Assembly (NCBI GenBank): GCA_947089585.1
Contig: CAMULB010000001.1
Coordinates: 440-64,439, forward strand
Direction: 5' to 3'
Source: an uncultured Lachnospiraceae bacterium
GTDB lineage: Bacteria; Bacillota; Clostridia; Lachnospirales; Lachnospiraceae
Length of the DNA: 64,000 nt
Shown here: positions 979 to 31,087 of the stretch, one piece after another
Layout: each line of letters starts with the position of its first letter
Position numbering within the stretch: position 1 is the first letter of the stretch
The notes under the pieces: model-generated
The model's input: only the letters and a program-made list of their open reading frames with translations
Told to the model about the DNA's origin: nothing
Database searches by the model: none
Translations under genes and position numbers: made by a program

Positions 979-1812
979 TTATTCCTCCAAAGCCTGCTTG
1001 AATTCAGAGTATTGCTCTTCTGTAATCCGCGCGTGATGCCAGCCCACCTGTCCCTCAATCGAAGAAATTCCTCTTCCTTTGACAGTCTCGGCAATGATTA
1101 CAGAAGGCTTTCCCGCCCCCGCCGCACGTACCGCTTTTTGAATCGCCGTAATGCTATGTCCATCTATCACCGTCACATCCCATCCAAACCCCCGAAACAC
1201 TTGTTCTAACTGACAAATTGGCATTACATCATCGGTGAAACCGTCCAGCTGCTGCCCATTTTTATCAATAATTGCAATCAGGTGATTCAGCTTATATTTT
1301 GCAGCCGCCATCGCAGCCTCCCAAACACAGCCTTCGTTGCACTCTCCATCTCCAAGAAGTACGAATGTTCGATAATCCAAATTTCGATTTTTTGCTGCAA
1401 GCGCTATTCCCACGCCAATTGACAACCCATATCCCAAGCTTCCAGAGGTAATCTCTATCCCTTTCTGGCAGCTTGCTATCTCGTGTGTAGAAAATTGCGA
1501 CCCATTTTTTTCAAAGCTGTCTAAATCATCCTGCGATAAGAACCCGCACTCTTTTAATACTGCATAATGTACAAGAGATACATGTCCCTTACTGAGAATA
1601 AAACGATCCCGATCTGGATTTAGCGAATCCTTCGGATCAAGCTTCATCTCAGACCCATAGAGCGTCGCCAAGATTTCAGCACAGGAAAAGGCTCCGCCGA
1701 TGTGTCCCCCTTCCACGCCTGCATGCAGCGTCATATCAAGAACATGATTTCTAATTTTTAATGCAAGATCTTGAATCTTTTCGATTGATTTTTCCACCTT
1801 ACATGCCTCCAT
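979..1812 (-). CDS. Transketolase N-terminal (TPP-binding) subunit
   Basis: 277-aa ORF with GDGECNEG (TPP/Mg motif) and ILSKGH. It overlaps the upstream SDR gene by 14 nt. Confidence 0.85.
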   Translation of the reverse strand: MEACKVEKSIEKIQDLALKIRNHVLDMTLHAGVEGGHIGGAFSCAEILATLYGSEMKLDPKDSLNPDRDRFILSKGHVSLVHYAVLKECGFLSQDDLDSFEKNGSQFSTHEIASCQKGIEITSGSLGYGLSIGVGIALAAKNRNLDYRTFVLLGDGECNEGCVWEAAMAAAKYKLNHLIAIIDKNGQQLDGFTDDVMPICQLEQVFRGFGWDVTVIDGHSITAIQKAVRAAGAGKPSVIIAETVKGRGISSIEGQVGWHHARITEEQYSEFKQALEE

Positions 1813-2539
1813 CCACTCGAATCACTTGACCTGTCATATAGCTTGCATAATCGCTGGCTAAAAAGGCAATTACATTTGCAATTTCTTTTGGCTTTCCCAT
1901 TCGCTTCATAATCACTCGATTTAAAGTTCTCTCTTTGAGATCCTCTTCTATCTTTGCGCCCATTTCAGTCTCGGTTATACCAGGCGCAACCGCATTCACC
2001 CGTATGTGATATGGAGCAAGTTCATGTGCTAGATGTCTTGTCGCGCCAATGATTGCCGCTTTACTTGAAGCATATTCATATTGTGCCGGCTCACCGTCAA
2101 TCCCTGCTATAGATGCAACATTTACGATAGAGCCCCCATTCTGTCTTACCATCAAGCGTGAAATATATTGCGTCAAAAGTGTGGTTGCAAAGAAATTTGT
2201 TTCAAACAAATGCTTCATTTTATCAATTGCCGTCATCTGAAAAGACGTACTTTCCTCCACGATGCCCGCTAAATTGACCAAAATATCTATACGAATCTTT
2301 TGCTTTCGTATCAATTGCACCGATTGCTTCATCTGGCTCTCATCTGTCAAATCAAAATAGAGTGGCCAAATCGAAACGGAATATTTCTCTGACAATTCCT
2401 TTAGCTCCGCTTCAAAATCTTCATCTTGTTTTCTCGCGCAGGCCCACACATTTGCACCATGAGCAGCAAAAACCTCCACCGCCGCACGGCCAATTCCACG
2501 TCTTGCACCCGTAATGACTGCATTTCTGCTTTTTAGCAT
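1799..2539 (-). CDS. Short-chain dehydrogenase/reductase (FabG-like)
   Basis: TGARRGIGRA (TGxxxGxG) and the YASSK (YxxxK) catalytic motif; 246 aa. Confidence 0.85.
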   Translation of the reverse strand: MLKSRNAVITGARRGIGRAAVEVFAAHGANVWACARKQDEDFEAELKELSEKYSVSIWPLYFDLTDESQMKQSVQLIRKQKIRIDILVNLAGIVEESTSFQMTAIDKMKHLFETNFFATTLLTQYISRLMVRQNGGSIVNVASIAGIDGEPAQYEYASSKAAIIGATRHLAHELAPYHIRVNAVAPGITETEMGAKIEEDLKERTLNRVIMKRMGKPKEIANVIAFLASDYASYMTGQVIRVDGGM

Positions 2540-2555
2540 CCGTTTTCTCCCTCTA

Positions 2556-3800
2556 TCAAATCAGATGGATGGTTCTGGTCAGCAGCGAAGGAAGACAATA
2601 ACCATCCCAAATCAGATCAAAATCCATGGTTTTACCCACTGGTACCACACGGTCAATCCCCTTTACCCCTGCTTGAAGCAGCGGCTGTACAGCTTCACGC
2701 TGCCCAATATAGGCAATGGTCTGACAGCGTTTGTCATCGCATAGCGCCCTGATTTCCAAAATATGATCACAATTATATTCATAAAAATAACCGCTGTTGT
2801 CACGATAGTCCATCAGAAAATCAGTAATCCGGGGAATGCTGACCCGAATAATTCGATTATCCATATACCGTCTGATTTTCACGCCTGACTCTGCAGCTGC
2901 AATCCGATAACCGCTTGTAAGCTTATTCACTCCCTGGATCGCCTGGAAGTTATATTTCTTACGCACTACTCTGTATGCCTCTTCCCAGAACATTTCCTTG
3001 GCTTCTTCAATCGCATTTCCCATCCAGACAATCACACGCGGACTGGTACACGCATTCTGGTCTGTCAAGAATGTATCGTTGTAAAAATCTTCTGCCGTTC
3101 TCGCTTTATCTTCTATCCTCAGATATGAGTCTGCATCAATGACCGCCACAGAATAACGATCCGCAAAAGTAATTTCACCGGAACGGGGCGGAAGCGGTGA
3201 TTTCCGCAGCTCCTCAATAGTTCGATCCCCTCCCCAGACAATTCGTACATCCGCAATCGAAGAAAACAAATCATTCACCGCTTTCTCTCGGCCATAGCGA
3301 ACAAGAAGGACATATGATCGCAGCTCTTCATATTGTTCTAAAGCTTGATAGAATGCCTCCGCAAGAAGATGAACTTGTGCAAACTCCTTGCTGGGCACAC
3401 GAACGATGTTTGCATTCCCACAAAGGAGCCCTGCTGCCAGTGAATATGCAAAGTTCACCGGCACATTGGAAGGAGCAATATGAAACGCGACACCCTTTCC
3501 GAGAGTTACTGCTTCCTCATTATTTTCAAATCGCTCTTTTTGCTTCAAAACAGAGGACTTACGAATCCAAAATGCAAATGTTACAAGATCAGGATAAGCT
3601 CTGACTGCTCGATTTCCCATCAATACTCTGGATACCTGATTGAGAAATTCAATAATCGTATCATGAAACGGAACAATTGCCGGAACATTGGGAAGCTTTG
3701 CGATGAGGTCCTCACTTCCAATTAAATAAGTCACTCGACGCAACACCTCAAGATTGATATTTTTCTGCATATGTGTCACTGCACCCCCTGATCTCAGCAT
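2556..3800 (-). CDS. LuxC-family acyl-CoA/acyl-protein reductase (aldehyde-forming)
   Basis: 414-aa ORF resembling the LuxC family by eye, directly downstream of and overlapping a LuxE-like gene. The alternative start MQKNINL at 3770 is plausible. Confidence 0.65.
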   Translation of the reverse strand: MLRSGGAVTHMQKNINLEVLRRVTYLIGSEDLIAKLPNVPAIVPFHDTIIEFLNQVSRVLMGNRAVRAYPDLVTFAFWIRKSSVLKQKERFENNEEAVTLGKGVAFHIAPSNVPVNFAYSLAAGLLCGNANIVRVPSKEFAQVHLLAEAFYQALEQYEELRSYVLLVRYGREKAVNDLFSSIADVRIVWGGDRTIEELRKSPLPPRSGEITFADRYSVAVIDADSYLRIEDKARTAEDFYNDTFLTDQNACTSPRVIVWMGNAIEEAKEMFWEEAYRVVRKKYNFQAIQGVNKLTSGYRIAAAESGVKIRRYMDNRIIRVSIPRITDFLMDYRDNSGYFYEYNCDHILEIRALCDDKRCQTIAYIGQREAVQPLLQAGVKGIDRVVPVGKTMDFDLIWDGYCLPSLLTRTIHLI

Positions 3801-4842
3801 CCTTTAAGCGGCCATGAATCTTAAAATATTTGCCCTTGCGTCCGCACGGGCAATCATCCTCCCCAAGGATTACCCCCTCATCCTCTGTTAAAAGGCTATG
3901 ACCAGGATAGGATTCTGGAATTGCAGACACCACCTGAATGATCCCGCTTTCTCCAATTGTACATTCTGAAAAATCAATCGGACGGCGTGTTACTACATCA
4001 GAAAAAATACTGGCATGCAGATGTCCATAGGCACATTCCATATAAATACAGCCCGTCTGTTCCACCATTCCATAATAATCATGGATCTTTGTAAGCCCGC
4101 AGACCTCTTTCAGCCTTTGATGAAATACTTCTCGACTTACAGCTTCAGAAATAAGCTTTTTCCATCCACCACCATGAATCATAATCCCATCAGAAAGATC
4201 AAACGTGATTCCTTCTTCCTTTAACCGCATCAGCTCCTGATAAAAGTGCTGCCAAATCATAAACGTGAATCCAAAGAGCAAAATTCTTTGTCCCCGATAG
4301 TTGGCAAGAAATTCTTTTAGCCCTTCCACATCTAACCTCATAGTATCATCAAGCGCATACATTTTCTTAGAAGCAAATATGGAGAAGCCAAGCATTCCAG
4401 CGCCGCGAGCTGAGAACATAGCCCTGTTCTTGACTACGCCTGGACAATCTATGAGAATCATTGGCATACGGCCTGAGCCTGTAAACTCAGATACGATCTT
4501 TACCATTGTCTTTTGTTGATTCGAAGCAGTCGTCCGATCGAGATAAATTCTACTGACTGCCTGGCCGCTCGTTCCAGAAGATGTCATTGTCTTAACAACC
4601 GCTTCTTCTGCAACAGACCGAAGGTCTAGTTCCTTAAACAAACGCACCGGAAGAAATGGCAAGTCTGTATAGCGCTTCACATGCTTCTCATCAAAACCGA
4701 TGCTTTCTAGCATACGCGCATATGCAGGACATTGCCTTCGATGGTGTTCGGTTAGTTCCAATAATCTTTTTGTTAGTAACTCCTCCTTTTCCCTCTTATT
4801 GAGCGAATATGGAGCAATACGCACTATCTCATCAAACGACAT
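3748..4842 (-). CDS. LuxE-family acyl-protein synthetase
   Basis: MSFDEIVRIAPYSL N-terminus and a TSSGTSGQ adenylate-forming motif. The start at 4842 follows a GAGGAGAAG RBS; the track ORF extends to 4875. Confidence 0.7.
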   Translation of the reverse strand: MSFDEIVRIAPYSLNKREKEELLTKRLLELTEHHRRQCPAYARMLESIGFDEKHVKRYTDLPFLPVRLFKELDLRSVAEEAVVKTMTSSGTSGQAVSRIYLDRTTASNQQKTMVKIVSEFTGSGRMPMILIDCPGVVKNRAMFSARGAGMLGFSIFASKKMYALDDTMRLDVEGLKEFLANYRGQRILLFGFTFMIWQHFYQELMRLKEEGITFDLSDGIMIHGGGWKKLISEAVSREVFHQRLKEVCGLTKIHDYYGMVEQTGCIYMECAYGHLHASIFSDVVTRRPIDFSECTIGESGIIQVVSAIPESYPGHSLLTEDEGVILGEDDCPCGRKGKYFKIHGRLKDAEIRGCSDTYAEKYQS

Positions 4843-4853
4843 TCGACTTCTCC

Positions 4854-5552
4854 TCATGATTGCAGCTTTGCACACATAATTTGAGCTATTTCCTGATGAT
4901 GTTCCTGAATAAAGAAATGGTTTCCTTCAAACACATAGTAATCGCACTCGCCGACAAAAAATTTCTTCCACAGCTCCATCTCGCATCTAGGTGTATCTGT
5001 TTGCGAATAAAAAATTGTCGCCGGCACATCCGAAACTAAATTGAGCTCTTCAAATTTGTATTTGCCGATGAGCGAATAATCGGCTCGATACAGCGGTAAA
5101 TACATCCTCCAAAAGCTCTGATTCCCAATCAGCTTATCGGGAACCCCTCCAAATTGAATCGTCTTCTCTTTCACCCACTCATCCAGCTGTTCATCCGAAA
5201 ACTCTGCCAATTCTGCTTTTGAATGCGGCTCGTGGGCAGCCAAAAAAACCTGACAGGGATTTTGTATCTTAGGTTCACGAATGATTTTTTTTAATAACTC
5301 AACGAGGGTGATTGTCCCCATACTGTAGCCAAACAGCGCATATGCTCCACCCTGATACATATCTTTGAAATGCAAAAACAAATCTGTAGATAACGCTTCA
5401 AAATCGTGGTAAAAAGCCTCTCTATGCCTTGTTCCATGTCCGGCATATTCCAATTTTACAAACGCAAAATCCGGCATATCCTTCTCAATCACGTCAAAGA
5501 ACGATGCATTTCCACCGGCATAGCTAAAACAGAACAGCTGTGTCTTACTCAT
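4854..5552 (-). CDS. Type II thioesterase (alpha/beta hydrolase, GrsT-like)
   Basis: GYSMG (GxSxG) nucleophile elbow and a C-terminal GNHFF His; 232 aa. It overlaps the AMP-ligase gene by 8 nt. Confidence 0.8.
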   Translation of the reverse strand: MSKTQLFCFSYAGGNASFFDVIEKDMPDFAFVKLEYAGHGTRHREAFYHDFEALSTDLFLHFKDMYQGGAYALFGYSMGTITLVELLKKIIREPKIQNPCQVFLAAHEPHSKAELAEFSDEQLDEWVKEKTIQFGGVPDKLIGNQSFWRMYLPLYRADYSLIGKYKFEELNLVSDVPATIFYSQTDTPRCEMELWKKFFVGECDYYVFEGNHFFIQEHHQEIAQIMCAKLQS

Positions 5553-6960
5553 AATATTTTATCAAGTCCTTATATAACGTCTTTCCGGCATCATTCTTCG
5601 GAATGTCTTCGATCACAATAACTTTGAATGCAGCAGGATTCAGTCTGGTTTTATTGATCACAAACGTGCGAACAGGCTCTGCAGACTTTTCATCGGTCAC
5701 AAAAATATACATGTGATCATCCACACCTGCACTTGCCGCCTCAATATTGAATGTGCCTTGAATCAGGCGATCCACCTCATCGAGATTCACACGGTTGCCA
5801 TAGATCTTTAGAAAGCGCTTTTTCCGTCCAACAATATAGTAATATCCATCCTCATCAAACTGCGCCATATCGCCCGTTTCAAGAATTCCATGACGTTCAT
5901 CCCCTTTCGCCAGGTCCTCTTTACACTCTGCATAACCGAGCGTAACGTTTTTCCCCTCATAGACAAGCTCCCCCGTCGTATGCGCAACCGTAATCTCATC
6001 TCCGTTCATATCAACCAAATGAAACTTACCTCCGGGAATCACGATTCCCATCGAGCCCTTCTTCTCAACCGCTCTCTCTGGTGGAAGATAGCCCATACGC
6101 GCGGTTGCCTCGCATTGACCATACATCACTACAAATTTTTTTCCGTTTTTTTCGGCATATTTTGCAAATTGTTCATGCAGCTCCGGCAAAAGCTTTCCCC
6201 CTGCCTGCGTCATTGTCCGAAGTGTTGGAAGATTCATGCGGTAAAAACGCAGCCGATCAAGCATCTCATAGGTATAGGGCACTCCGCCGAAGGACGTTGC
6301 TTTTGCTTCCCGAAAAAATTCCCAAAATTCCTTCTCCATCAATGTTCTCTCTGTTACCAGTAATGTAGCGCCAACGAGAAAATGGCTGTTGATGATGGAA
6401 AGACCATAAGTATAATTCATTGGGAGCGTAGTGATCGGCCGCTCTGTGGCATCCAATTCCAGATATGTTACAATAGACTGTGCATTATTCAGCACATTGG
6501 CATAAGACTGACGGACAAATTTCGGCGAACCAGTCGAACCAGAGGTTGTGAGAAGAAGCCCCAGCTCACGATAAAGCGGACAACTCTTTGCATAACCCGT
6601 CTTTAACAAAATATAGTGATATGCTTCATACACTGCTTCCATCCCGGAAAATTGATTCATCTGATCCTTGGGGATCCAAAGATAAGATGGTTCATACGTT
6701 TCCAACAAATTTTCCATCAGGTTTTCTTCCAGATGGCTGTTCAGCAGTACCGGTACAATCGCATGATTGATAAAACTGACATATCCCAATACGGAACCAA
6801 TCTCATTTCGGCAAAGCGAAAATACAAGACACCTTTGTCCAATTTTTTCAGCCAAAATCTGCGCCTCTGAATCCAAAACATCGTAGGTCAGCTGATTGCC
6901 GTGTTCATCCATGAGTGCCGTTGCTTTTCCAAACTGGCCAAATTCCCATATCTTTCCCAT
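5545..6960 (-). CDS. AMP-dependent synthetase/ligase (stand-alone adenylation enzyme)
   Basis: Motifs TSGSTGSPK, YGQCEAT, GDMAQFDEDGYYYIVGRKKRFLKIYGNRV and a C-terminal GK. Its start shares 1 nt with the ACP stop (TAATG). Confidence 0.85.
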   Translation of the reverse strand: MGKIWEFGQFGKATALMDEHGNQLTYDVLDSEAQILAEKIGQRCLVFSLCRNEIGSVLGYVSFINHAIVPVLLNSHLEENLMENLLETYEPSYLWIPKDQMNQFSGMEAVYEAYHYILLKTGYAKSCPLYRELGLLLTTSGSTGSPKFVRQSYANVLNNAQSIVTYLELDATERPITTLPMNYTYGLSIINSHFLVGATLLVTERTLMEKEFWEFFREAKATSFGGVPYTYEMLDRLRFYRMNLPTLRTMTQAGGKLLPELHEQFAKYAEKNGKKFVVMYGQCEATARMGYLPPERAVEKKGSMGIVIPGGKFHLVDMNGDEITVAHTTGELVYEGKNVTLGYAECKEDLAKGDERHGILETGDMAQFDEDGYYYIVGRKKRFLKIYGNRVNLDEVDRLIQGTFNIEAASAGVDDHMYIFVTDEKSAEPVRTFVINKTRLNPAAFKVIVIEDIPKNDAGKTLYKDLIKYYE

Positions 6961-7220
6961 TAAAATTGCACCCCATATTCATCCTTGGACAGAATTTCTT
7001 TGCCGTTTTCGTAGGAACTAAGATCAATCATATCATCCGTATCCATCATAATATCAAACGCGTCCTCTAATTCAGCCACAAGCTGCATATGACCAACGGA
7101 ATCCCATGCTTCGATATCCTGATATTTCAATCCATGGAGCTGATCCGCTCCGATCTCAAAAGCATTCATAAATGCCTGATTATATTTTTCCAAATTGCTC
7201 ATATCACAGTTCTCCTTCAC
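6960..7220 (-). CDS. Acyl carrier protein
   Basis: Approximately 80-aa acidic protein with a WDSVGHMQLV phosphopantetheine Ser motif. The start may be MSNLEKY at 7202. Confidence 0.75.
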   Translation of the reverse strand: MKENCDMSNLEKYNQAFMNAFEIGADQLHGLKYQDIEAWDSVGHMQLVAELEDAFDIMMDTDDMIDLSSYENGKEILSKDEYGVQF

Positions 7221-7869
7221 TTTTCTTCATCTTCGGTAAGGCAATACGCTTGGCAGGATTACCAAATACATGCACTCCGGATTTCAGATGATTCACCACA
7301 ACACTCCCTACGCCAATATGGCATTCATCACCAATTTGAATTCCTGGTATCGTAGATGCATTGCAGCCAAAGAATACATAGTTACCGATCGTGACATGTC
7401 CGTTAATTCCGCAGCTTGCACTAAATGTCGTAAAATCTCCAACCGATGCATCATGGCCAATGGAGGTATTATCAAGAACCGTCACAAAATTACCAATACG
7501 CACATTCACGGTTATTCTTGCATTGGGATATAAGACCAAGCCCTTACCGAACGAATGAAACGCCCCAATCCGGGCATCTGGATGGATGATCGACGTAAAT
7601 TGTGCTCCGCGATTTTCCAGCCTCCTGACCACATACTCCTTTGTTTTAGGTTCTGCAATGGCAAGTGCAAAAACCTGATCTTCCTGCGGAACCCATTCCT
7701 CAATTGTTCCAATAATTTGATAATCACATGTAAATCCATCAAGCGCAGCCCGATTATCATCAATAAATCCAGCGATTTCCCATTCCTGTTTTACTTTTTG
7801 TATATCCTTACACCATTGAAGCAGTTCTCTGCCAAATCCACCGGCGCCAACAATGATCAATTTTTTCAT
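7204..7869 (-). CDS. NeuD/PglD-family sugar N-/O-acyltransferase (left-handed beta-helix)
   Basis: N-terminus MKKLIIVGAGGFGREL followed by hexapeptide repeats (IGxxxxIG...). I chose the start at 7869; the track ORF extends to 7929. Confidence 0.8.
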   Translation of the reverse strand: MKKLIIVGAGGFGRELLQWCKDIQKVKQEWEIAGFIDDNRAALDGFTCDYQIIGTIEEWVPQEDQVFALAIAEPKTKEYVVRRLENRGAQFTSIIHPDARIGAFHSFGKGLVLYPNARITVNVRIGNFVTVLDNTSIGHDASVGDFTTFSASCGINGHVTIGNYVFFGCNASTIPGIQIGDECHIGVGSVVVNHLKSGVHVFGNPAKRIALPKMKKSEGEL

Positions 7870-7931
7870 AATGGCTCTCCTCTCAGCAAATACTTTAACC
7901 GTTTTTCTTTTATAAAACCATTGAAACAAAT

Positions 7932-8570
7932 CTATTGTATCGTTTCATCACTACCCATGAATTCTTCCATTGTTACACTTGAATCAGAACTAATTCCTTC
8001 TCGCTTGAGCACAGTTCTTACTGTATCAAGCAGTATTTTCCAGTCTCCAAGAAATGTGATCTGATCTATATATTTGACATCCCAGTTAAATTTCTCTTCC
8101 CATGAAATCGCATTACGGCCATGAATTTGCGCCAGACCTGTAAATCCTGGCCGCACCTCATGACGCCTTGCCTGATGCTTGTTATATCTCGGCAAATATT
8201 GAACCATCAATGGTCTTGGCCCAACCATACTCATATCGCCGCGAAGAACATTAAACAGTTCCGGTAATTCGTCCAACGAGGTGGCTCGTAATTTTTTTCC
8301 AAATGCAGTTAATCGAATTTCATCTGGAAGTAAATTCCCATTTGCATCTACTTCACTTGTCATAGACCGAAATTTGTAAACTTTAAATATTTTTCCATTC
8401 TTTCCTGGTCTGTCTTGTTTAAAAAGAACGGGCGAGCCAAGCTTCATCCTCACAAGTATTGCTGTAATTAACAGAACCGGACTTAAAAGAACAGATGCCA
8501 GTAACGCACATAAAAAATCCTGTGGACGTTTTATGTATTTTTCATATGGACCGTGAGGTTTGTGGTGCAT
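7932..8570 (-). CDS. Undecaprenyl-phosphate sugar-phosphate transferase (PglC/WbaP C-terminal type)
   Basis: One N-terminal TM helix, then KFRSM...DELPELFNVLRGDMSMVGPRP, the bacterial sugar transferase signature. The start MHHKPHG at 8570 has a GAGAGGA RBS; the track ORF extends to 8612. Confidence 0.85.
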   Translation of the reverse strand: MHHKPHGPYEKYIKRPQDFLCALLASVLLSPVLLITAILVRMKLGSPVLFKQDRPGKNGKIFKVYKFRSMTSEVDANGNLLPDEIRLTAFGKKLRATSLDELPELFNVLRGDMSMVGPRPLMVQYLPRYNKHQARRHEVRPGFTGLAQIHGRNAISWEEKFNWDVKYIDQITFLGDWKILLDTVRTVLKREGISSDSSVTMEEFMGSDETIQ

Positions 8571-8583
8571 AAGCTTATCCTCT

Positions 8584-9876
8584 CTATTCAAAGCATCTAT
8601 GAATGATATCAATTACAACGTCTTGCTGTTCTTCTGTCATCTTATTATCTGAAGGCAGGCACACGCCTCGATGAAAAATATCAGCCCCGACGTCAATGCG
8701 ATTACTTGCAATATAGGCATTGCTCTGAGCCCTTCCATTGCCATTCTTTGTAACAAAAGCGTTCATCTGATAGATTGGCTGCATATGCATCGGTTTCCAA
8801 ATTGGTCGTCCTTCCACATGAAAAAATGTTAAAGCCGCAAGAATTTCTGTCGGACAGGATTTTCCGGATTCTGTTACATATAAGCTTTCTTTTTCCCCAC
8901 GTACCTGCTGACACATCGCATGCGAATCAATCATTAGGCAGCTCAACCAAAAGTTCGGCTCTGACTCTTCACGATATGGATTCATGCGCACAGGCAAATC
9001 CCGCAGCCCTTTTTTATACCGCTCATAAATCGCTTTTTTCTGGGCCTTATGTTCCTTTGCATAGGGCAGCTGGCCACGGACAATTCCTGCAATAATATTG
9101 CTCATCCGATAGTTATATCCAAGCTCTTCATGCTGATACCATGCGGCGTCTTCACGGCTCTGTGTAGACCATTTTCTTGCCTTATTTGCCCATTCAAGCT
9201 CATCGGTCAACAGCATTCCACCAGAACTGCCTGTAATCAATTTATTTCCATTCCAGCTAAAAATACTTACCTCGCCGAAGCATCCTGTCTGTATCCCTTT
9301 ATAAGTTCCGAGAAAGGATTCTGCGGCATCTTCTACAATTAGAGCTCCATGTCGGTCGGCAATTGCTTTTATCTCATCCATCTTTCCTGGTGTTCCATAA
9401 AGATGAGCTACGACAATCAGTCTCACTTCCGGATACAGCTCAAACGCTTTCTCCAGTGCGATCGGATCCATATTCCAGGTATCGTATTCCGTATCAATAA
9501 AAACAGCCTCTCCACCCTCGTAAGCAATTGGATTATCCGTCGCATCAAACGTCATATCACTGGCAAACACTTTTTTTCCTTCCAGTGTCCCATGACCAAC
9601 CTTAGGCTGACCGTACAGCTTCTCACCGACAAGCTTGATCGCAAGATGAAGTGCAGCTGTACCGGAGGACAACGCAACCGCATACTTACGACCAATTAAT
9701 TCCGCCGTCATGCGCTCTATTTCGTCTATATTCCTACCGACCGTAGACACCCAATTCGTCTCAATCGCTTCATTTACCCATTTTTGTTCCTCACCGTGCA
9801 TCGTCGGAGAAGATAACCAAATTTTGGATTCAAAGGGTTCGATCCCCTGAAACCGCGGATCATTTCTGCAATCCAT
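8584..9876 (-). CDS. DegT/DnrJ/EryC1/StrS-family PLP sugar aminotransferase
   Basis: 430 aa with SSGTAALHLA and a WNGNKLITGSSGGML (PLP Lys) region. Confidence 0.85.
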   Translation of the reverse strand: MDCRNDPRFQGIEPFESKIWLSSPTMHGEEQKWVNEAIETNWVSTVGRNIDEIERMTAELIGRKYAVALSSGTAALHLAIKLVGEKLYGQPKVGHGTLEGKKVFASDMTFDATDNPIAYEGGEAVFIDTEYDTWNMDPIALEKAFELYPEVRLIVVAHLYGTPGKMDEIKAIADRHGALIVEDAAESFLGTYKGIQTGCFGEVSIFSWNGNKLITGSSGGMLLTDELEWANKARKWSTQSREDAAWYQHEELGYNYRMSNIIAGIVRGQLPYAKEHKAQKKAIYERYKKGLRDLPVRMNPYREESEPNFWLSCLMIDSHAMCQQVRGEKESLYVTESGKSCPTEILAALTFFHVEGRPIWKPMHMQPIYQMNAFVTKNGNGRAQSNAYIASNRIDVGADIFHRGVCLPSDNKMTEEQQDVVIDIIHRCFE

Positions 9877-9929
9877 TCTATTATTGCTCCCTAATAAAAA
9901 TTTTTGTCTGTCTCAAATACAACCCTGAT

Positions 9930-12299
9930 TCATTTCAGACGCAGACTAGAATTTGCAGTCTGCTTTTTCTCCACGCTCCATACATACCGCGCTCTGTCCG
10001 GCTGCCAGATCATGCCGATCTGATCCAGCTTCTTTTTACGTTCCGTCTGCAGGGCGCCGTTTTTATACGCTTCTCTCTGACGACGAATCCATTTTCCCAG
10101 ATAAGCACCATTGTCTGTGATATAGGACACTGGCACATTCAAATTGCCATGCCGCTGATAATACGCGCAGGCCAGGGCATAGACGCCATCCCAGGCCGCA
10201 CTGCGTTTTGGCTGCCAGATCATGCCGATTTGGTTTAGCCTTTCCGTCTGTTCTGCCGTCAAAGCCGTACCTCGATAGCTTTTTGACGACGGTTTTAACT
10301 CAAGCTTCTCCTGTTTTGGCTGCGCTGCCAAACCTTGTCGCGTCTCAGGCTTCTCCTGTTTTGGCTGCGCTGCCAAACCTTGTCGCGTCTCAGGCTTCTG
10401 CTTGGTTGTGCAGGGGCCAAGCATCCGCATTTTGTGAATCCAGCTTCCCAGACGAACGCCGTCCGCGTTCACATAGCCGCTTGGCACGTTGAGATTTCCA
10501 AACGCTCGGTAATACGCTTCTGCCGCCTTAAAATTCTGTTCCCACAGATAAGCTGGAACATCCCACACCATACCGATGCCGTCAAGCGCATCGATTTTCT
10601 CTTGTGTCAACGTGAGACCGGTCGCCGGCAGAATCATGCAGTCAGACTCTGGCAAACAGTATACTGCATTTTCATCGCTGTCATTTCTGCCATCTTCTTT
10701 CACATCTCTCAGACCACTCTTTCTCGCCGTTCGCAGCTGCGTGATCCAACGCCCCAGAGCCATCCCGTTTACTTCCTCGCGCGCCGGCACAAGAAGATTT
10801 CCATGCTGTTGGTAATAACGCTTTGCTTCCGTATAATATTTCTCCCAGGCTGCTTCTCGTGCGTCCCGCCAACGCATGCCGATCGCTTCCAGCCGTTCTA
10901 CCTGTGTCTGGGTCAGTATTCCACTTGTTTTGCAGTGGTACACCTTTCGCTGGGTATTCAGCCACTGGCCCAGCGACAACCCCTCCGGCGTTACGTAGCG
11001 TTTTGGAATCTCAAGGCTTCCCTTTTCCCGGTAATAGCGTTCTGCCGCCGCGTACATCAAATCCCAGGACGCGGACAAGGTTCCTTCTAACTGCTGAAAG
11101 AGACGGATACAGTCGCACGTTTCATCCATCACATAAAACTGATCGTTGACAATCTCCGCTTCTCTTCCCTGACGGCGATACGCTTCGACCGCTGCACGCA
11201 TTTCTTCCTCCACTGTACCGATACTGCAGAGGTTCTCAACGTTTTGCACCACATCAAAAATGACGGCATTCTTTTTCTTTCCGGCAGACAATGCCCGGCC
11301 AATCTGCTGCTTGTAGATGATCGGGGAAACGGTCGGGCGCAGCAGAATTACCCCGCTGATGTTCTCTACATGGATTCCCTCATTGAGCATATCAATACAG
11401 AACAACAGCTTTAAATGCCTGCTTGCATCTGCTTTAAAATCGGCGAATTCTTTACTTGTGTCTGGTTCCTCGGAGTAGACAGAGTACACATGCGGCTCCT
11501 TATCGACCTTGGCGAACCATTCCCCTGATTTGGCAATCATCTCCTGCATATGGTCATAATCCGCGCAGAATACCAGATACTTTCCTGTCCGTTCTGTCAT
11601 ATACCTGTCAAAAATCTGATCTAATCCTTCGGCCTGTGCCAGCGCCCGCCGCAGCGCCTCCAGCTCCTGCTGGGCCGCGGCCCGCACTGCCTGACTCCTG
11701 GCGTTACGAACCCTGGCTTCATACTGCTTTAAATTCTTCTGATACGAAAAAACAGAAAGCACATACTTTGGCGGGCTTAAAATGCCGCGCACAATTGCTT
11801 CTCCTAAGGTCATCTGGGAAGCAATTTTTCCGTCAAATAGTTCATCTGCCATATCGCGCTGATTGTCGAGGTAGCGAATGTTGGTCGCAGACAACCCCAA
11901 AAGTGGATTTTTCGGGAAAAACGCTAACAGTCGCGTCACACCCCGCCCCCACATCGCGGCCCCGCAACGATGAAACTCGTCTAAAACAATGTAATCCGGC
12001 TCAATTTTTCTTAACTCGTCTTCTTCCATCAGCATCAATTTTGCATACGTAAGAAAACGAATATTGCTGCACCTGCTGCCGCCAGACCGCAGCCAATTCT
12101 CCTGCTGTGTGTGAAAAATATATTCCGAGGGGGAGAGCCAGCAAATCGTCTGCTGTGGATGTTCCGCGCAAAGCTGAAAGGCAATGAAGGACTTTCCGGT
12201 GCCGGTAGGATGAATCACAGCGGCTTTCCCATCGCGCTGCATCAAACGGCAGGCAGCCTCGTATGCCGCGCGGTTGTGTTCGTACAGCAGCATCCCCAT
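9930..12299 (-). CDS. SF2 (DEAH-like) helicase fused to multiple helicase-associated (HA) domains
   Basis: HPTGTGKS (Walker A) and VLDEFHRCG (DEFH box). The C-terminal half holds about 6 repeats of the W..Y..A..Y....G.L.VP......G..LG.W pattern. The start MGMLLYE at 12299 has a GGGAGGG RBS; the track ORF extends to 12344. Confidence 0.8.
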   Translation of the reverse strand: MGMLLYEHNRAAYEAACRLMQRDGKAAVIHPTGTGKSFIAFQLCAEHPQQTICWLSPSEYIFHTQQENWLRSGGSRCSNIRFLTYAKLMLMEEDELRKIEPDYIVLDEFHRCGAAMWGRGVTRLLAFFPKNPLLGLSATNIRYLDNQRDMADELFDGKIASQMTLGEAIVRGILSPPKYVLSVFSYQKNLKQYEARVRNARSQAVRAAAQQELEALRRALAQAEGLDQIFDRYMTERTGKYLVFCADYDHMQEMIAKSGEWFAKVDKEPHVYSVYSEEPDTSKEFADFKADASRHLKLLFCIDMLNEGIHVENISGVILLRPTVSPIIYKQQIGRALSAGKKKNAVIFDVVQNVENLCSIGTVEEEMRAAVEAYRRQGREAEIVNDQFYVMDETCDCIRLFQQLEGTLSASWDLMYAAAERYYREKGSLEIPKRYVTPEGLSLGQWLNTQRKVYHCKTSGILTQTQVERLEAIGMRWRDAREAAWEKYYTEAKRYYQQHGNLLVPAREEVNGMALGRWITQLRTARKSGLRDVKEDGRNDSDENAVYCLPESDCMILPATGLTLTQEKIDALDGIGMVWDVPAYLWEQNFKAAEAYYRAFGNLNVPSGYVNADGVRLGSWIHKMRMLGPCTTKQKPETRQGLAAQPKQEKPETRQGLAAQPKQEKLELKPSSKSYRGTALTAEQTERLNQIGMIWQPKRSAAWDGVYALACAYYQRHGNLNVPVSYITDNGAYLGKWIRRQREAYKNGALQTERKKKLDQIGMIWQPDRARYVWSVEKKQTANSSLRLK
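10304..10393. repeat. Perfect 45-bp tandem duplication inside the helicase CDS
   Basis: The unit gcttctcctgttttggctgcgctgccaaaccttgtcgcgtctcag occurs twice back to back, followed by a partial third start. It encodes PETRQGLAAQPKQEK twice, in frame. Confidence 0.95.
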
Positions 12300-12322
12300 G
12301 AAATGTCCCTCCCTTCGGAAAT

Positions 12323-12344
12323 GTAATGAAGGATAACACTTCAT
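12323..12344. repeat. Left arm of a perfect 22-bp inverted repeat
   Basis: gtaatgaaggataacacttcat, the exact reverse complement of 12678-12699. It lies in the helicase 5' leader, 24 nt upstream of the ATG. Confidence 0.95.
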
Positions 12345-12599
12345 GATAAAGAATACAAAATCCCATGTTTTATCAGGAGTTCTGCGCCTCTAGGACTATA
12401 AAATTGACTGCGAATGGATCCCGAAAAAAATCAAAGACGTGTGTCCCATCCGTAATTTGGCTTTATTTCAGGTGAGTAATTGACGACGATTTGACGATGA
12501 AAAAAGAGTTTTCATTTAGATTTGTAACAAAATAGCCAGTTCAAGGTCATCTTTTGCCCCAGATACCAGGGACTGCCATTCAAAATGGCCGATGCACCC

Positions 12600-12628
12600 T
12601 TGACAAACCACAAGTAAAATGATATAAA
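12600..12628 (+). promoter_or_regulatory. Near-consensus sigma-A promoter facing the + strand (no + strand gene downstream)
   Basis: TTGACA (12600-12605), a 17-nt spacer ending in TGa, then TATAAA (12623-12628). Confidence 0.6.
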
Positions 12629-12674
12629 TAAAAGCGTTAAGAGAGAATTTTAAGAATATTTTTCATTTTTTCAG

Positions 12675-12706
12675 GTAATGAAGTGTTATCCTTCATTACT
12701 TTTTTT
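12675..12706 (+). terminator. Right arm of the 22-bp inverted repeat; forms a hairpin plus T7 on the + strand
   Basis: Stem gtaatgaag / cttcattac (9 bp) with a 7-nt loop, followed by ttttttt (12700-12706). The inverted-repeat arm itself is 12678-12699. Confidence 0.65.
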
Positions 12707-12720
12707 CATGCTCTTTTCCA

Positions 12721-12764
12721 TAAAAACAGCACTCGCAACGCCTGAATCTGCGTAACAAGTGCTG
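12721..12764 (-). terminator. Rho-independent terminator of murF
   Basis: On the minus strand, cagcact...agtgctg forms the outer stem with an inner acgc/gcgt pairing, followed by TTTTT. It begins about 27 nt after the murF stop. Confidence 0.6.
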
Positions 12765-12790
12765 TATGATTCTCGTTAGACGGTTCTTTT

Positions 12791-14188
12791 TTAAGCACCT
12801 TCCAACAGCTGTACTACCTGCGAAAACTCCATAAAATGAGACGCCTTGACCAGAACGGTATCTCCTTCTTTGACCATCCCCTGCAGCTGCAGCAGCATCT
12901 CTTCTCTCGTCAAATACGAATAAATCTGAGTTTTCGCTTCCATCGGCGCCTGCTGCAAATACTCCCTCGCACCACGCGCTATCTCCTGTGACAGCGTTCC
13001 GACGCAGAAGAGCACATCTACACCTGCTTTCGCCGCATAAGTCCCGACCTCATAATGCAGCTGCTTCTCCTGTTCACCGAGCTCTCCCATATCGCCCAAT
13101 ACGGCAATCTTCCGTCCCTTGGCGCTCTTTAGCACATCCAGGGATGCTTTCATCGACATCGGATTGGCATTGTAGCAATCGTCGATGATCAGCAGACCGT
13201 TTGCTTCGATCAAATTGGTGCGGCCCTGAATCGTCCTTGCATTGGCCAGACCCTGACGAATCTCTTCCAGGGACAGGCCCAGCGCAAGGCCCACACCAGC
13301 CGCCGCCATGGCATTATAGAGGCTATGATGACCGGGAATCGGAATGGTTGTTTCAATTGAGCCCTTCGGCGTGTGCAGCATGGCACGGCTGCCCAAAAGC
13401 CCCCTATTTTCTGCCTGGTCAACAGAAATATCGTATGGCCCGATGCCGTAAAAAATGGGCTTTGTCTCTCCTGTCTGTTGGATGCCAGCCAGCTTATCAT
13501 CATCTCCGTTTAAAAATACGGACGCGCCCGCGGCAAGATGGTCGAACACCTCCGTCTTGGCCCGCAAAACACCGTCCCGATCGCCCAGATTCTCCAAGTG
13601 ACAGGTGCCGATATTGGTAATTACACAAAGGTCAGGCTTAGCGATTGCTCCTAAACGATGCATTTCTCCAAATTCGGAAATCCCCATCTCTACCACCGCC
13701 ACCTGATGCTCCTTCTGAATCTGCAGAATCGTCAGCGGCAGCCCGATTTCATTGTTGAAATTGCCGGCGGTCTTTAAGACACGATATTTGACGGAAAGCA
13801 CGGAAGCGATCATTTCCTTGGTGCTGGTCTTGCCGACGCTCCCCGTAATGCCGACGATTGGAATCGCAAGCCGGCTGCGGTAATAGGCCGCAATCTCTTT
13901 TAATGCCGTCAGACAGGACGATACGAGAATGTAGGGGTCCTTGCAGTCCGGCAGAGGATGCTCCGTCAAGGTCGCCAATGCCCCCCGCGCAAACACAGTC
14001 GGAATAAAGGTGTGTCCGTCCACTCGTTCCCCTTTAATCGGAATAAAAAGATCGTCTTTTTCTATTTTGCGGCTGTCAGATTGCGCTCCCGCAATCGAAA
14101 GTAATTTTTTCTCTTCCGCTCCTACATAAGTACCGCCGCAAGCTTCTGCAATTTGACCTAATGTCATATGTTCCATCATTTTGTTCAC
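12791..14188 (-). CDS. murF: UDP-N-acetylmuramoyl-tripeptide--D-alanyl-D-alanine ligase
   Basis: GITGSVGKTSTKEM P-loop and Mur ligase architecture; 465 aa. It lies downstream of ddl. Confidence 0.9.
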   Translation of the reverse strand: MNKMMEHMTLGQIAEACGGTYVGAEEKKLLSIAGAQSDSRKIEKDDLFIPIKGERVDGHTFIPTVFARGALATLTEHPLPDCKDPYILVSSCLTALKEIAAYYRSRLAIPIVGITGSVGKTSTKEMIASVLSVKYRVLKTAGNFNNEIGLPLTILQIQKEHQVAVVEMGISEFGEMHRLGAIAKPDLCVITNIGTCHLENLGDRDGVLRAKTEVFDHLAAGASVFLNGDDDKLAGIQQTGETKPIFYGIGPYDISVDQAENRGLLGSRAMLHTPKGSIETTIPIPGHHSLYNAMAAAGVGLALGLSLEEIRQGLANARTIQGRTNLIEANGLLIIDDCYNANPMSMKASLDVLKSAKGRKIAVLGDMGELGEQEKQLHYEVGTYAAKAGVDVLFCVGTLSQEIARGAREYLQQAPMEAKTQIYSYLTREEMLLQLQGMVKEGDTVLVKASHFMEFSQVVQLLEGA

Positions 14189-14261: not shown

Positions 14262-15317
14262 CTATTGTTGATATTTTGCCAGAGAAATCTCAATCAATTT
14301 TTCACACAACGACTCAAAGGTCAGTCCCACCGCCAAGGCTTCCTGGGGAAGCAAGCTGGTCGGTGTCATACCCGGCAGCGTATTGGCTTCCAGACAGAAC
14401 ATTTCTCCTCGATCGTTCAGCAAAAAGTCCATGCGGGAATAGGTGATTAATCCCAAAGCTCTCGCCACCTGCTCGGCATACGACTGCATTTGTTCGGCCA
14501 CATTCTCCGGCAGATCAGCCGGACAGGTCTCTACCGCCGCTCCGGCCTTGTATTTATTCTTGTAGTCATAAAATCCTTCTACCGGGGCAATCTCAATCAC
14601 TGGAAGCGCTCTTCCATCTAAGACACCGACTGAAAACTCGCGCCCGTCAATGTACTCCTCCACCAGAATCTCCGCTTCATAGCGAAATGCTTCTTCCAAA
14701 GCCGCTTGATATGCTTCCTGTGTGCGGACAATCGACACACCGATGCTGGAACCGCCGCTGCAGGGCTTTACCACACAGGGAAGCTTCAATCCTGTGTCCG
14801 CAAATGCGGCTAAAGCCTCTCCCCGCCGCAGAGAAATCCCGTTCGGCGTTGGAATCTGGTGGATGGCAAACAGCTTCTTAGCCAATGTCTTATTCATAGC
14901 CAGGGCGCTGCTCAAATAGTCGGTTCCAGTATATTTGATGCCAAACAGATCGAACGCGGCCTGAAGCTTGCCATTCTCACCATGCTCACCATGCAGTGCG
15001 AGAAATACCAGATCGGCCATACGGCACAGCTCAATGACATTGGGCCCGAACAGGCAATCCGACTGATCCTTACGGCTCCTTTTAATTGCATCCAAATCCG
15101 GAGCGGTCGTGGGAATCTCCGCTACCTCCACGCTGGCCTCCAGAGAACGTGCAAAGATTCCGTCCAAATCGACCGGCCCCTCCTCATATCCCATAAACAA
15201 ATCGAGCAAAATCACACGGTGCCCATTGCTCCGCAAAGCCTTACTTACCATATTTCCCGTTGAAAAAGAAACATCCCGTTCACTGCTTAAGCCCCCGGCT
15301 AATACTACGATATCCAT
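14262..15317 (-). CDS. ddl: D-alanine--D-alanine ligase
   Basis: ATP-grasp protein with VLAGGLSSERDVS, HGEHGENGKLQ and EANTLPGMT motifs. Confidence 0.9.
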   Translation of the reverse strand: MDIVVLAGGLSSERDVSFSTGNMVSKALRSNGHRVILLDLFMGYEEGPVDLDGIFARSLEASVEVAEIPTTAPDLDAIKRSRKDQSDCLFGPNVIELCRMADLVFLALHGEHGENGKLQAAFDLFGIKYTGTDYLSSALAMNKTLAKKLFAIHQIPTPNGISLRRGEALAAFADTGLKLPCVVKPCSGGSSIGVSIVRTQEAYQAALEEAFRYEAEILVEEYIDGREFSVGVLDGRALPVIEIAPVEGFYDYKNKYKAGAAVETCPADLPENVAEQMQSYAEQVARALGLITYSRMDFLLNDRGEMFCLEANTLPGMTPTSLLPQEALAVGLTFESLCEKLIEISLAKYQQ

Positions 15318-15481: not shown

Positions 15482-16048
15482 ATGAGACAAGATTTTTATG
15501 AAGCTCTGGAAAATTCTCCGATTATCGCCGCTGCCAAGGATGCAGACGGCCTCAACCGCTGCCTGACCTGCGACAGTCCGGTCATATTTCTTTTGTTCGG
15601 CGACATCTGCAGTATTGGGGATCTGGTTCTTACCGCAAAAGAAGCCGGCAAAATGGTATTCGTGCACATCGACCTGGTACAGGGCCTAAGCGCTAAAGAA
15701 ATCGCGGTCGATTTTATCAAAAAATATACCCAGGCCGACGGGATCATCAGTACCAAACCGGCGCTGATCAAACGTGCCGGACAGTTGGGTCTTTGCAGCG
15801 TGCTGCGCTGCTTTGTCATCGACTCTCTTGCGCTGTCCTCCATTGAAAAACAACTGAAACAGGCCTCTCCCGATCTGATTGAGGTCCTCCCCGCGCCGAT
15901 GCCAAAAATTATCGCCCGCATCTGCAAGATGGTCTCCGTCCCCGTCATTGCGGGGGGCCTGATTTCGGACAAGGAGGATATCATGGCCATGCTCTCGGCC
16001 GGCGTTGTTTCCATCTCCTCCACCAGCCCGGATATCTGGTTTTTATAA
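15482..16048 (+). CDS. glpP: Glycerol-3-phosphate responsive antiterminator
   Basis: 188 aa with PIIAAAKD, VFVHIDLVQGL, DGIISTK, PDLIEVLPAPMPKII and IAGGLI, as in the GlpP family. An extended -10 (TGaTATAAT) lies about 70 nt upstream. Confidence 0.8.
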   Translation: MRQDFYEALENSPIIAAAKDADGLNRCLTCDSPVIFLLFGDICSIGDLVLTAKEAGKMVFVHIDLVQGLSAKEIAVDFIKKYTQADGIISTKPALIKRAGQLGLCSVLRCFVIDSLALSSIEKQLKQASPDLIEVLPAPMPKIIARICKMVSVPVIAGGLISDKEDIMAMLSAGVVSISSTSPDIWFL

Positions 16049-29902: not shown

Positions 29903-29916
29903 TAGATCTTCCCTCC

Positions 29917-31077
29917 CTATGGTTCGTCGGCTCCGTCTACCCGCTTTGCAACCAGGAACAGACGGCCATCCTCAATATAATAATTACAGGTCGAAAGAGT
30001 AATCAGTTTATCGCCATAATTCAAATCCACTTCGTCCTGATATACCTTCAGTTCCTCAATATTACGCTTATATTCTGCAAAAGCCGCTTCATCCTCCGCA
30101 TTGAGGAAATTATAATAACGGAACACGTCTTCGTCCTGATACTCAACCTTCGCCAAGCATACTGCTATAATATCATATTCTTCCCGATCATACAATGTAT
30201 GAAATTGAATTCTTTTATGATTTTTCCAATATGTTTCGTCTAAATACTCCTGCAGGCCGCCAAACATCATGCCGCTGCGCATGTTATGACCATATATCAT
30301 AAGGTTATCGTCCCGATTTACATAATTATTACGCATATCGAGGAAAATACAACCATTTTTGTCCTCTTCTTTATTAAAATTATGCTGCAAATAAAATTCG
30401 TTGGAATCCACGGACTGCATGACCGGATAATCAATCTCTGTCCCCGGAATCTTAATCCATCCCACCAGATCCGGGTTCTGCGTATGCAATCCGACATATT
30501 CCGGCAATATCTCACGCGGTTCTTCCACTGCCTCAGGCTCCTCACTCTGCCCTGGCTGTGCATTTCCTTCTGGAACGGCTGTGGAATCACTCGCCTCCTG
30601 TTCTTCTGACACCTCTTCTAAGCTTCGCTTGACATAATCGGAAATATAACGTGTCGCTCTTGATGTCTCCTTACTCTGCTGCAGCTCCTTCATCTCTCTT
30701 GTCTTGCGGTAACTCATATATTCGTTGCCAAAAAAATAGCCAAAACAAAGGATTGCCGCAATAATACACAGAATCCCGGCAATCTTGCGGGGAGCTCCTC
30801 CCCGCTCGACTGCCAGGTTCTCAAAACCTTCATCTGCCAATTCCTTGTAGTCATCCGCCAGTAAATCAGAAAGATACAACAGATAATCTTCTCCAATGAC
30901 ACTTTGAAATTTGATATCCTTCTGTCTGATCAGGGTGTAGAGCCGAAGCGCTACCCCCTGTTCATTGATGTCCACTTCATCTGATATGCATTTGATCTTT
31001 CGTACATCTGCCAAACCCTTCTTGTACTCCGAATAGGAGTCAAATTGAAAACGTCCGATCCGATATATTTTCTTCAT
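29917..31077 (-). CDS. srtB: Class B sortase with extended N-terminal cytoplasmic region
   Basis: C-terminal domain has IYGHNMRSGMMFGGL and LITLSTC (catalytic Cys). A TM helix (IAGILCIIAAILCFGYFF) lies near residue 100. Confidence 0.8.
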   Translation of the reverse strand: MKKIYRIGRFQFDSYSEYKKGLADVRKIKCISDEVDINEQGVALRLYTLIRQKDIKFQSVIGEDYLLYLSDLLADDYKELADEGFENLAVERGGAPRKIAGILCIIAAILCFGYFFGNEYMSYRKTREMKELQQSKETSRATRYISDYVKRSLEEVSEEQEASDSTAVPEGNAQPGQSEEPEAVEEPREILPEYVGLHTQNPDLVGWIKIPGTEIDYPVMQSVDSNEFYLQHNFNKEEDKNGCIFLDMRNNYVNRDDNLMIYGHNMRSGMMFGGLQEYLDETYWKNHKRIQFHTLYDREEYDIIAVCLAKVEYQDEDVFRYYNFLNAEDEAAFAEYKRNIEELKVYQDEVDLNYGDKLITLSTCNYYIEDGRLFLVAKRVDGADEP

Positions 31078-31087
31078 AGTTTCATCA

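Follow-up and report, generated by a model that had tools for sequence, protein, structure and literature searches.

Phase-variable capsules are central to the persistence of Bacteroides in the gut, to the evasion of phages and to the shaping of immunity. Among the closest described inversion systems, the capsule loci of Bacteroides fragilis are served by Mpi, a serine recombinase; the fimS switch of Escherichia coli has 9-bp inverted repeats and depends on IHF and Lrp sites; and in the cwpV switch of Clostridioides difficile an orientation-dependent terminator is part of the switch logic. For the equally abundant Lachnospiraceae and Oscillospiraceae, we know of almost nothing comparable that has been worked out. 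Here we analyse a stretch of 64,000 nucleotides from an uncultured Lachnospiraceae bacterium (hereafter, the window), in which a 377-bp cassette (12323–12699) is located between murF and an operon led by a helicase gene. We consider it very probable, from its sequence and that of its relatives, that this cassette is a promoter inversion switch (inverton) in the OFF orientation. This reading is supported by comparison with relatives; what was observed is of four kinds, namely the anatomy of the cassette, the conservation of this anatomy across a family of loci, orthologues with flipped interiors, and recombinase genes linked to the switches of relatives.

The cassette is bounded by a perfect 22-nt inverted repeat (GTAATGAAGGATAACACTTCAT at 12323–12344 and its reverse complement at 12678–12699) with 333 nt between the arms, and the repeat extends to 26 nt at 96% identity (12319–12344 and 12678–12703). 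An earlier reading of this DNA (hereafter, the original prediction) had described a perfect 22-bp repeat around a 333-bp non-coding segment, and its coordinates proved exact. That reading had also allowed for the 22-mer being a common dispersed hairpin. We found a single pair in the window, with no further copies of the arm at up to 3 mismatches (0 of 100 shuffles contained any match), and zero exact matches in 185,579 species genomes and the JGI metagenome collection, which indicates that the 22-mer is not a dispersed repeat or hairpin. Each arm forms a 25-bp site, in which two 9-nt half-sites enclose an asymmetric 7-nt spacer, and the two spacers (GATAACA at 12332–12338 and TGTTATC at 12684–12690) are exact reverse complements:

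12323–12347: helicase-proximal site, 25 bp; read on the + strand, outer half-site GTAATGAAG (12323–12331), spacer GATAACA, degenerate inner half-site CTTCATGAT (12339–12347).
12348–12674: interior of the invertible segment, 327 bp, non-coding, between the two 25-bp sites.
12675–12699: helicase-distal site, 25 bp; inner half-site GTAATGAAG (12675–12683), spacer TGTTATC, outer half-site CTTCATTAC (12691–12699).

Compared with the consensus of the family to which this locus belongs (GTAATGAAG-N7-CTTCATTAC), the distal site matches at 18 of 18 positions and the proximal site at 16 of 18. The layout of the core sites, with half-sites around an asymmetric spacer and matching spacers in the two partners, is of the tyrosine-recombinase type (lox/FRT/dif-like). 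Open reading frames (ORFs) that lie wholly within the interior are short (≤36 aa).

The following elements determine in which direction the cassette would be transcribed, and where transcription would end:

12600–12628, + strand: predicted sigma-A promoter in the OFF direction; TTGACA (12600–12605), a 17-nt spacer ending in TGA (extended −10 TG), TATAAA (12623–12628).
12636–12706, + strand: predicted short OFF-state transcript; leader of ~40 nt, distal-site hairpin (12675–12699) and U7 (12700–12706), together a predicted intrinsic terminator.
12721–12765, − strand: intrinsic terminator of murF; stem 12726–12765, U run 12721–12725.
12300–12322, − strand: 5′ untranslated region (UTR) of the helicase gene, with the ribosome-binding site GGGAGGG at 12307–12313; too short for a fixed promoter.

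The near-consensus + strand promoter of the original prediction is present as described. It scores 12.5 by motif scoring, lies 46 nt before the distal site and faces away from the helicase; a general promoter scan left it unlisted, as it accepts only a T in the last place of the −10 element. On the minus strand, where no convincing promoter had been seen between 12345 and 12480, the best match within the segment reaches 9/12. The right arm, read on the + strand, contains a 9-bp (up to 11-bp) stem at 12675–12699 followed by T7 at 12700–12706, so that the hairpin and seven Ts anticipated about 45 nt past the promoter are found at 46 nt, whereas the left arm, read towards the helicase, is followed by ATTTCCG and, as had been claimed, by no T tract. 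From this arrangement, the distal recombination site appears to double as a terminator stem, which would halt antisense transcription into murF in the OFF state. Upstream of the cassette, the murF terminator (−28.1 kcal/mol, z = −4.7, with 0 of 200 shuffles equally stable) is kept in a sister species, and its strength implies that read-through cannot feed the helicase operon. Because, in addition, the interval between the proximal site and the ATG is just 23 nt, the promoter of the segment is the sole visible promoter for this operon. GGGAGGG and the ATG at 12299 are as described in the original prediction, and this start is borne out by the same one being called for the identical helicase protein P0001 and for loci L001–L005.

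In the mechanism that we propose, the two sites are in inverted orientation, and strand exchange within their spacers would therefore flip the 327-bp interior without altering either site. In the OFF orientation, as sequenced, the promoter would fire towards the 3′ end of murF, and the transcript, predicted to fold into the site hairpin followed by U7 (−15.3 kcal/mol), would end there after ~70 nt; given the murF terminator and a promoterless helicase UTR of 23 nt, the helicase and the glycan/lipid operon behind it should be silent. After inversion (ON), the promoter and its leader would exit via the proximal site and read into GGGAGGG, the helicase and the downstream operon. The predicted ON leader contains the same hairpin followed by AUUUCCG and then by the ribosome-binding site, and since AUUUCCG is not a U tract, transcription should continue into the helicase. 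The left junction of the flipped form is predicted to read CCGAAATGTAATGAAGGATAACACTTCATTACCTGAAAAAATG on the + strand.

The same design recurs across Clostridia. Among the scored candidates, 7022 helicase homologues were found at E ≤ 10−30, and a helicase-homologue profile yielded 80 loci from genomes of Lachnospiraceae, Oscillospiraceae, Ruminococcus and other Clostridia. An inverted-repeat (IR) pair was present in ~40 of the 66 loci with enough upstream DNA; its proximal arm lies 20–130 nt before the helicase start, and the arms are usually separated by 230–460 nt. The sites define family A, to which the window belongs ((A)ATGTAATGAAG-N7-CTTCATTACA, 28 loci), family B (ACATAAT-N4-ATTATGT) and family C (CGCCTATTAT-N-ATAATAGGCG). 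Almost every segment among the ~40 IR-bearing loci scored has one outward TTGACA-17-TGnTAnnAT promoter, 42–58 nt from one site. All 28 family-A loci carry an outward promoter, 23 being OFF and 5 ON (related loci, see below); the call of OFF in the original prediction rests on promoter direction, by which 23 of 28 family members are assigned in the same way. Runs of at least 5 Ts follow the distal exit in 20 of these 28 loci, compared with 5 of 28 for the proximal exit (paired Wilcoxon p = 2 × 10−4, with loci that are not independent).

Spacer pairs are exact reverse complements in 32 of 32 family-A loci, among which there are 23 distinct spacers. Eight genomes of relatives have at least 2 switches (one locus is visible in the 64 kb of the source genome), and the spacers differ in 8 of 8 genomes carrying two. 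If strand exchange here requires homologous spacers, as is the case for tyrosine recombinases, private and complementary spacers are to be expected; they would also keep a single enzyme from recombining one locus with another. A possible exception to one spacer per locus is the pair L021 and L027, from the same metagenome-assembled genome (MAG; Lapin-003-2 bin22), which appear to share TATTTTA; L027 breaks at the site, where a shared or exchangeable promoter segment and a mixture of strains are indistinguishable.

A scan of the metagenome collection with GTAATGAAG-N7-CTTCATTAC, blind to the helicase, returned 72 stretches with a perfect site, 38 of which have a partner site with a complementary spacer 331–474 nt away. 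In nearly all of these 38 an outward promoter lies 43–49 nt from a site. A helicase homologue adjoins 24 of the 38 paired switches (20 OFF, 4 ON), and the others precede NusG paralogues and DegT, or membrane proteins.

Many MAG and isolate contigs end 60–330 nt upstream of a helicase homologue (L008, L013, L027, L028, L034, L056, L058, L062, L069, L070, L082 and L083), and the ends of L027, L062, L083, L082, L013 and L058 fall at or inside a recombination site, which fits assembly breaks at invertible or repeated DNA. For annotation, the switch would explain why MAG contigs so frequently break just upstream of helicase genes. In two isolate contigs, L048 (1–1708) and L073 (1–870), the switch is surrounded by long, perfect inverted duplications. 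The arms of L048 measure 365 nt, and this contig contains three sites; in L073, the first 98 nt of its helicase gene are repeated as their reverse complement at the start of the contig. These duplications are probably assembly artefacts of a culture of mixed orientation; otherwise they represent a more complex, three-site switch.

Inversion itself is seen when orthologous loci are compared. Collinear flanks around an inverted interior were found for L064/L065 (flanks 93%, interior 94.5% identical on the minus strand), L016 vs. L010 and L012, L072/L087 and L054/L060, and the breakpoints at which the strand changes fall inside the 25-bp sites. Among the contigs of the metagenome scan, which here come from different samples, L130 and L136 (OFF) and L151 (ON) share both flanks at 98.3–99.1% and the inverted interior at 99.1–99.3%, which, read from these alignments, is a flip within one species.

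Recombinase genes are linked to the switches of relatives. In family B (9 loci) and family C (L031 and L078), the end of a PF00589 tyrosine recombinase gene lies 1–39 nt away from the distal arm. A second type, of ~375 aa, was first met 161 nt from the family-A switch of L057, and recurs beside helicase genes at loci initially scored as lacking an IR, where an enclosing IR pair lies 1.36–1.58 kb apart. The recombinase is inside such a long cassette in L015, L053, L066 and L076 (family-A sites) and in L039, L061 and L084 (other sites). Where a strong promoter was detected in a long cassette, the outward promoter and the recombinase gene are divergently oriented, and the strand of the gene follows the promoter direction, being minus when the promoter faces the helicase (L015, L039 and L061) and plus when it faces away (L066, L076 and L084). 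The linked recombinases show weak NCBIfam similarity to 'tyrosine-type DNA invertase' models. Both a long (L076) and a short form (L060) occur within the genome of Dorea sp. 5-2, consistent with a master recombinase that serves promoter-only cassettes in trans, and the cassette of the window is of the short form. We infer from these longer, homologous family members that the cassette of the window is served by a tyrosine recombinase of ~375 aa that is Int/Xer-like and whose gene is located outside the window; this gene would probably lie inside its own invertible cassette before a paralogous locus and act in trans, and the locus-private spacer would keep recombination intramolecular. The recurring design, the inverted interiors of orthologues and the linkage to recombinases in relatives together support the invertible promoter of the original prediction.

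Contigs of the same species were reached via cluster representatives, through the identical helicase protein P0001 and the MurF protein P0124, both of which occur on a handful of metagenomic contigs. L006, L088, L089 and L090 span the whole intergenic region and are 99.2–99.8% identical to the window, and the partial contigs L004, L005 and L091 share its orientation. Several points weigh against an inverton that is active at this locus. All five spanning same-species assemblies (the window, L006, L088, L089 and L090) are OFF, no flipped same-species copy was found in L001–L006 and L088–L094, and the sister-species contigs L092 and L093 are also OFF; as consensus assemblies show the majority orientation only, this uniformity does not exclude switching, yet it leaves switching unproven here. 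The inner half-site of the proximal site is degenerate (ATCATGAAG). No recombinase domain was detected by Pfam in the scanned window ORFs of at least 150 aa, and tblastn of seven recombinases against the 64-kb window was likewise negative, so that the window is, as had been stated, without a recombinase gene. The activities of promoter and terminators are predicted from consensus. The loci of the family are phylogenetically related, and hence the 23 OFF and 5 ON counts and the Wilcoxon p-value overstate independence. Finally, ends of same-species contigs cluster at 12316–12396 (L001, L003, L004, L005 and L091, at a coverage of 3–6×); we rejected this clustering as proof of mixed orientation, because the ends miss the expected graph-branch positions and coverage is low.

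Part of this evidence would also be accounted for by a former invertible promoter that no longer switches here, for example because its recombinase has been lost, with the operon permanently silent or under an unrecognised promoter. The same OFF orientation in all five spanning assemblies and in the sister species, the window devoid of a recombinase, and the degenerate inner half-site are all as such a relic would leave them. We nevertheless regard it as unlikely. In the sister species (L092–L094), MurF is 86% identical and a homologous cassette is present. Its two 25-bp sites are each identical to those of the window at 24 of 25 positions and have the same spacer, and identity is 86% for the promoter, 70% for the leader and 62% for the remaining interior. 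Conservation of sites and promoter against a diverged interior indicates selection on the former and not on the filler between them, and, with spacers that are exact complements, argues that selection on the sites continues. Furthermore, OFF also predominates among family members with demonstrated flips, the family has many degenerate inner half-sites, and the downstream ORFs of the operon are intact. The present ability of the window's inverton to switch is what we infer from these comparisons. In one sister-species contig, L092, positions 4230–4258 diverge from L093 past the proximal site, directly after ...ATTTCCGAAGG; a chimeric contig end, or a junction with another, paralogous locus, could account for the divergence.

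A second alternative is a small-RNA gene, in which the promoter at 12600–12628 and the hairpin with T7 at 12675–12706 make a functional RNA of ~70 nt, and the second arm is incidental. Promoter and terminator-like hairpin do lie ~70 nt apart on the same strand, and the fold of leader plus site is more stable than that of most shuffles (z = −2.6). A search of 11800–13300 for Rfam families at a permissive threshold, however, gave chance-level matches only, and in the sister species the leader is conserved at 70% vs. 96% for both sites. Nor is the second arm incidental, as pairs with complementary spacers are found in 32 of 32 loci and their interiors flip, and an RNA by-product of the OFF state is compatible with an inverton. 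We therefore reject a small-RNA gene as very improbable. Least probable, and likewise rejected, is a miniature inverted-repeat transposable element (MITE) or insertion-sequence remnant that came to lie between murF and the helicase with terminal repeats unrelated to gene control: inverted termini of 22–26 bp around a short non-coding segment would suit it, but the element is single-copy in the window, its arm has no exact match in the 185,579 species genomes or the JGI metagenome collection, a target-site duplication is not evident around the arms, its position relative to the start of the helicase or NusG paralogue is fixed across genera with an outward promoter at fixed distance, and the spacers are locus-specific rather than identical between copies.

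Inside the inverton there are, besides the promoter, two tandem repeat modules:

12392–12415, + strand: tandem TTGAC repeat module; candidate accessory or arm-type protein-binding site.
12480–12502, + strand: second module of tandem direct repeats, TTGACGACGAT TTGACGATGAAA; position conserved in the sister species.

The family-A interiors together contain 66 copies of TTTGAC in promoter sense against 2 in antisense, in 27 of 28 loci (L009–L075). The TTGAC copies are mostly tandem, 11–12 nt apart, with the unit TTGAC[T/C/G]NNNAAT(T). We also considered these repeats as a general feature of all helicase switches and rejected this, since they are absent from family-B and family-C cassettes; the repeats thus track the site and recombinase family, not the helicase. 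Our best guess is that they are putative arm-type or accessory recombinase sites.

It is possible, and we propose it tentatively, that the window holds one copy of a Clostridia-wide, multi-locus system for phase variation of surface glycans that combines five parts. First, a tyrosine recombinase of ~375 aa, inside its own invertible cassette of 1.4–1.6 kb, would act in trans on short promoter-only cassettes. Second, 9-7-9 sites with a private 7-nt spacer at each locus would forbid rearrangements between loci. Third, the distal recombination site would also serve as the terminator hairpin of the OFF state. Fourth, the promoter-oriented 12-nt TTGAC repeats, confined to this site family, may set directionality or rate. 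Fifth, a helicase with helicase-associated (HA) domains would be the conserved first gene, often followed by a NusG paralogue; this helicase may act in locus-specific transcription or in cross-regulation, like UpxY/UpxZ in Bacteroides.

The genes surrounding the cassette are all on the minus strand, as the original prediction had it: ddl (14262–15317), murF (12791–14188), a 490-nt gap and the helicase gene (9930–12299), behind which lie the operon genes. The only + strand gene nearby, at 15482–16048 between ddl and a MatE transporter gene, encodes a GlpP-type glycerol-3-phosphate-responsive antiterminator (PF04309). The genes that the switch would control are:

9930–12299, − strand: first gene under the switch, a 789-aa superfamily 2 (SF2) helicase (ResIII/DEAD and Helicase_C) with four HA domains (PF03457, E = 2 × 10−71).
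979–9876, − strand: downstream co-oriented operon, from a DegT aminotransferase to a transketolase N-terminal subunit.

The gap between the helicase and DegT genes (9877–9929), in which no terminator had been visible, contains no terminator-like site on the minus strand, and the operon probably extends past the start of the window. Its designation as a glycan operon is right only in part: at its beginning a DegT (PglE/LegC-like) aminotransferase, a Bac_transf phosphoglycosyl transferase and a PglD/NeuD-like acetyltransferase are encoded, and its continuation encodes an acyl-CoA ligase, a thioesterase, LuxE (acyl-protein synthetase), LuxC (acyl-CoA reductase), an SDR enzyme and the transketolase N-terminal subunit. 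This gene content suggests a product other than a plain polysaccharide, namely a sugar with a lipid or aldehyde modification.

Among the 66 family loci with >800 nt downstream of the helicase homologue, Bac_transf is encoded in 43 and DegT in 37. A NusG paralogue (PF02357) is present in 20 of the 66, immediately after the helicase in 15, and is missing from the operon of the window. In L027, L113, L116, L121 and L144, NusG paralogues (PF02357, LoaP/UpxY-like) stand directly after the helicase or the switch, before DegT and Bac_transf. Elsewhere in the window, the minus strand of 28292–38434 encodes a protein of 2448 aa that carries a fibronectin type III domain at its C terminus, and then a sortase and a leucine-rich-repeat protein of the BspA type; the region resembles a cell-surface adhesin cluster and is low in G+C (33–37% at 35–39 kb).

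Promoter inversion by a site-specific recombinase is a well-known mechanism, and it is the features at the level of the family that are worth following. In a full-text literature search we found no account of the site motif, of phase variation at HA-helicase loci, or of invertons of the family-A type in Lachnospiraceae. A survey of hCom2 reported new, unnamed IR motifs in 'Firmicutes_A' (PMC11892184). Large PhaseFinder catalogues may already list such elements anonymously. The family provides a defined 25-bp site, a candidate recombinase, and an ON/OFF readout from promoter direction that can be scored in any metagenome. Its private-spacer rule would explain how a single enzyme could operate many switches and yet leave the chromosome unscrambled, and it flags the unexplained HA-domain helicase as a conserved first gene.

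Among known systems, Cre/loxP and FLP/FRT share with family A the inverted half-sites around an asymmetric spacer that sets directionality, so that inverted sites give inversion, and in those systems sites with unlike spacers are incompatible with one another, in keeping with the private spacer of each family-A locus; the likeness is one of anatomy only (9-7-9 vs. 13-8-13). The RecV switches of C. difficile (cwpV, flgB and cmrRST) resemble the system proposed here in that surface phase variation in Firmicutes is exerted by one trans-acting tyrosine recombinase on several IR-flanked switches. In cwpV and flgB, however, the promoter lies outside the invertible DNA and orientation governs termination in the leader, whereas here the segment carries the promoter; the site consensus, the helicase-first operons and the form with the recombinase inside the cassette also set the family apart from the RecV switches. 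Like fimS with FimB/FimE, the cassette is a segment of ~300 bp with a single outward promoter, short inverted sites and tyrosine recombinases, the gene for which is next to or inside the element in the long and adjacent forms of the family. Unlike fimS, it has a full 25-bp site at each end and oriented 12-nt TTGAC tandem repeats in its interior, a single enzyme seems to act on many loci that differ in spacer, and the copy in the window has no adjacent recombinase.

A parallel also exists with the capsular polysaccharide invertons of Bacteroides (PSA–PSH of B. fragilis, with Mpi and UpxY/UpxZ), in which several glycan loci per genome each have their own IR-flanked promoter, a site consensus is shared across loci, most loci are OFF, and a recombinase encoded elsewhere acts in trans. 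The NusG-family paralogue that follows the helicase (in 20 related loci) or directly follows the switch (in others) is likewise reminiscent of UpxY. The family differs in being found in Clostridia, in its sigma-A promoter of the TTGACA/TATAAT type, and in its palindromic 9-7-9 sites with locus-private spacers, the Mpi-type IR motif being different; in contrast to the Mpi system, the recombinases linked to it are PF00589 tyrosine recombinases. Its first gene, an SF2 helicase with HA domains, is without a Bacteroides counterpart, and a predicted terminator is built into its OFF-side exit. With an invertible promoter, a regulatory-looking first gene, glycan genes and several copies per genome, the system is, by analogy, one that would work like the Bacteroides capsule system but is built from different parts.

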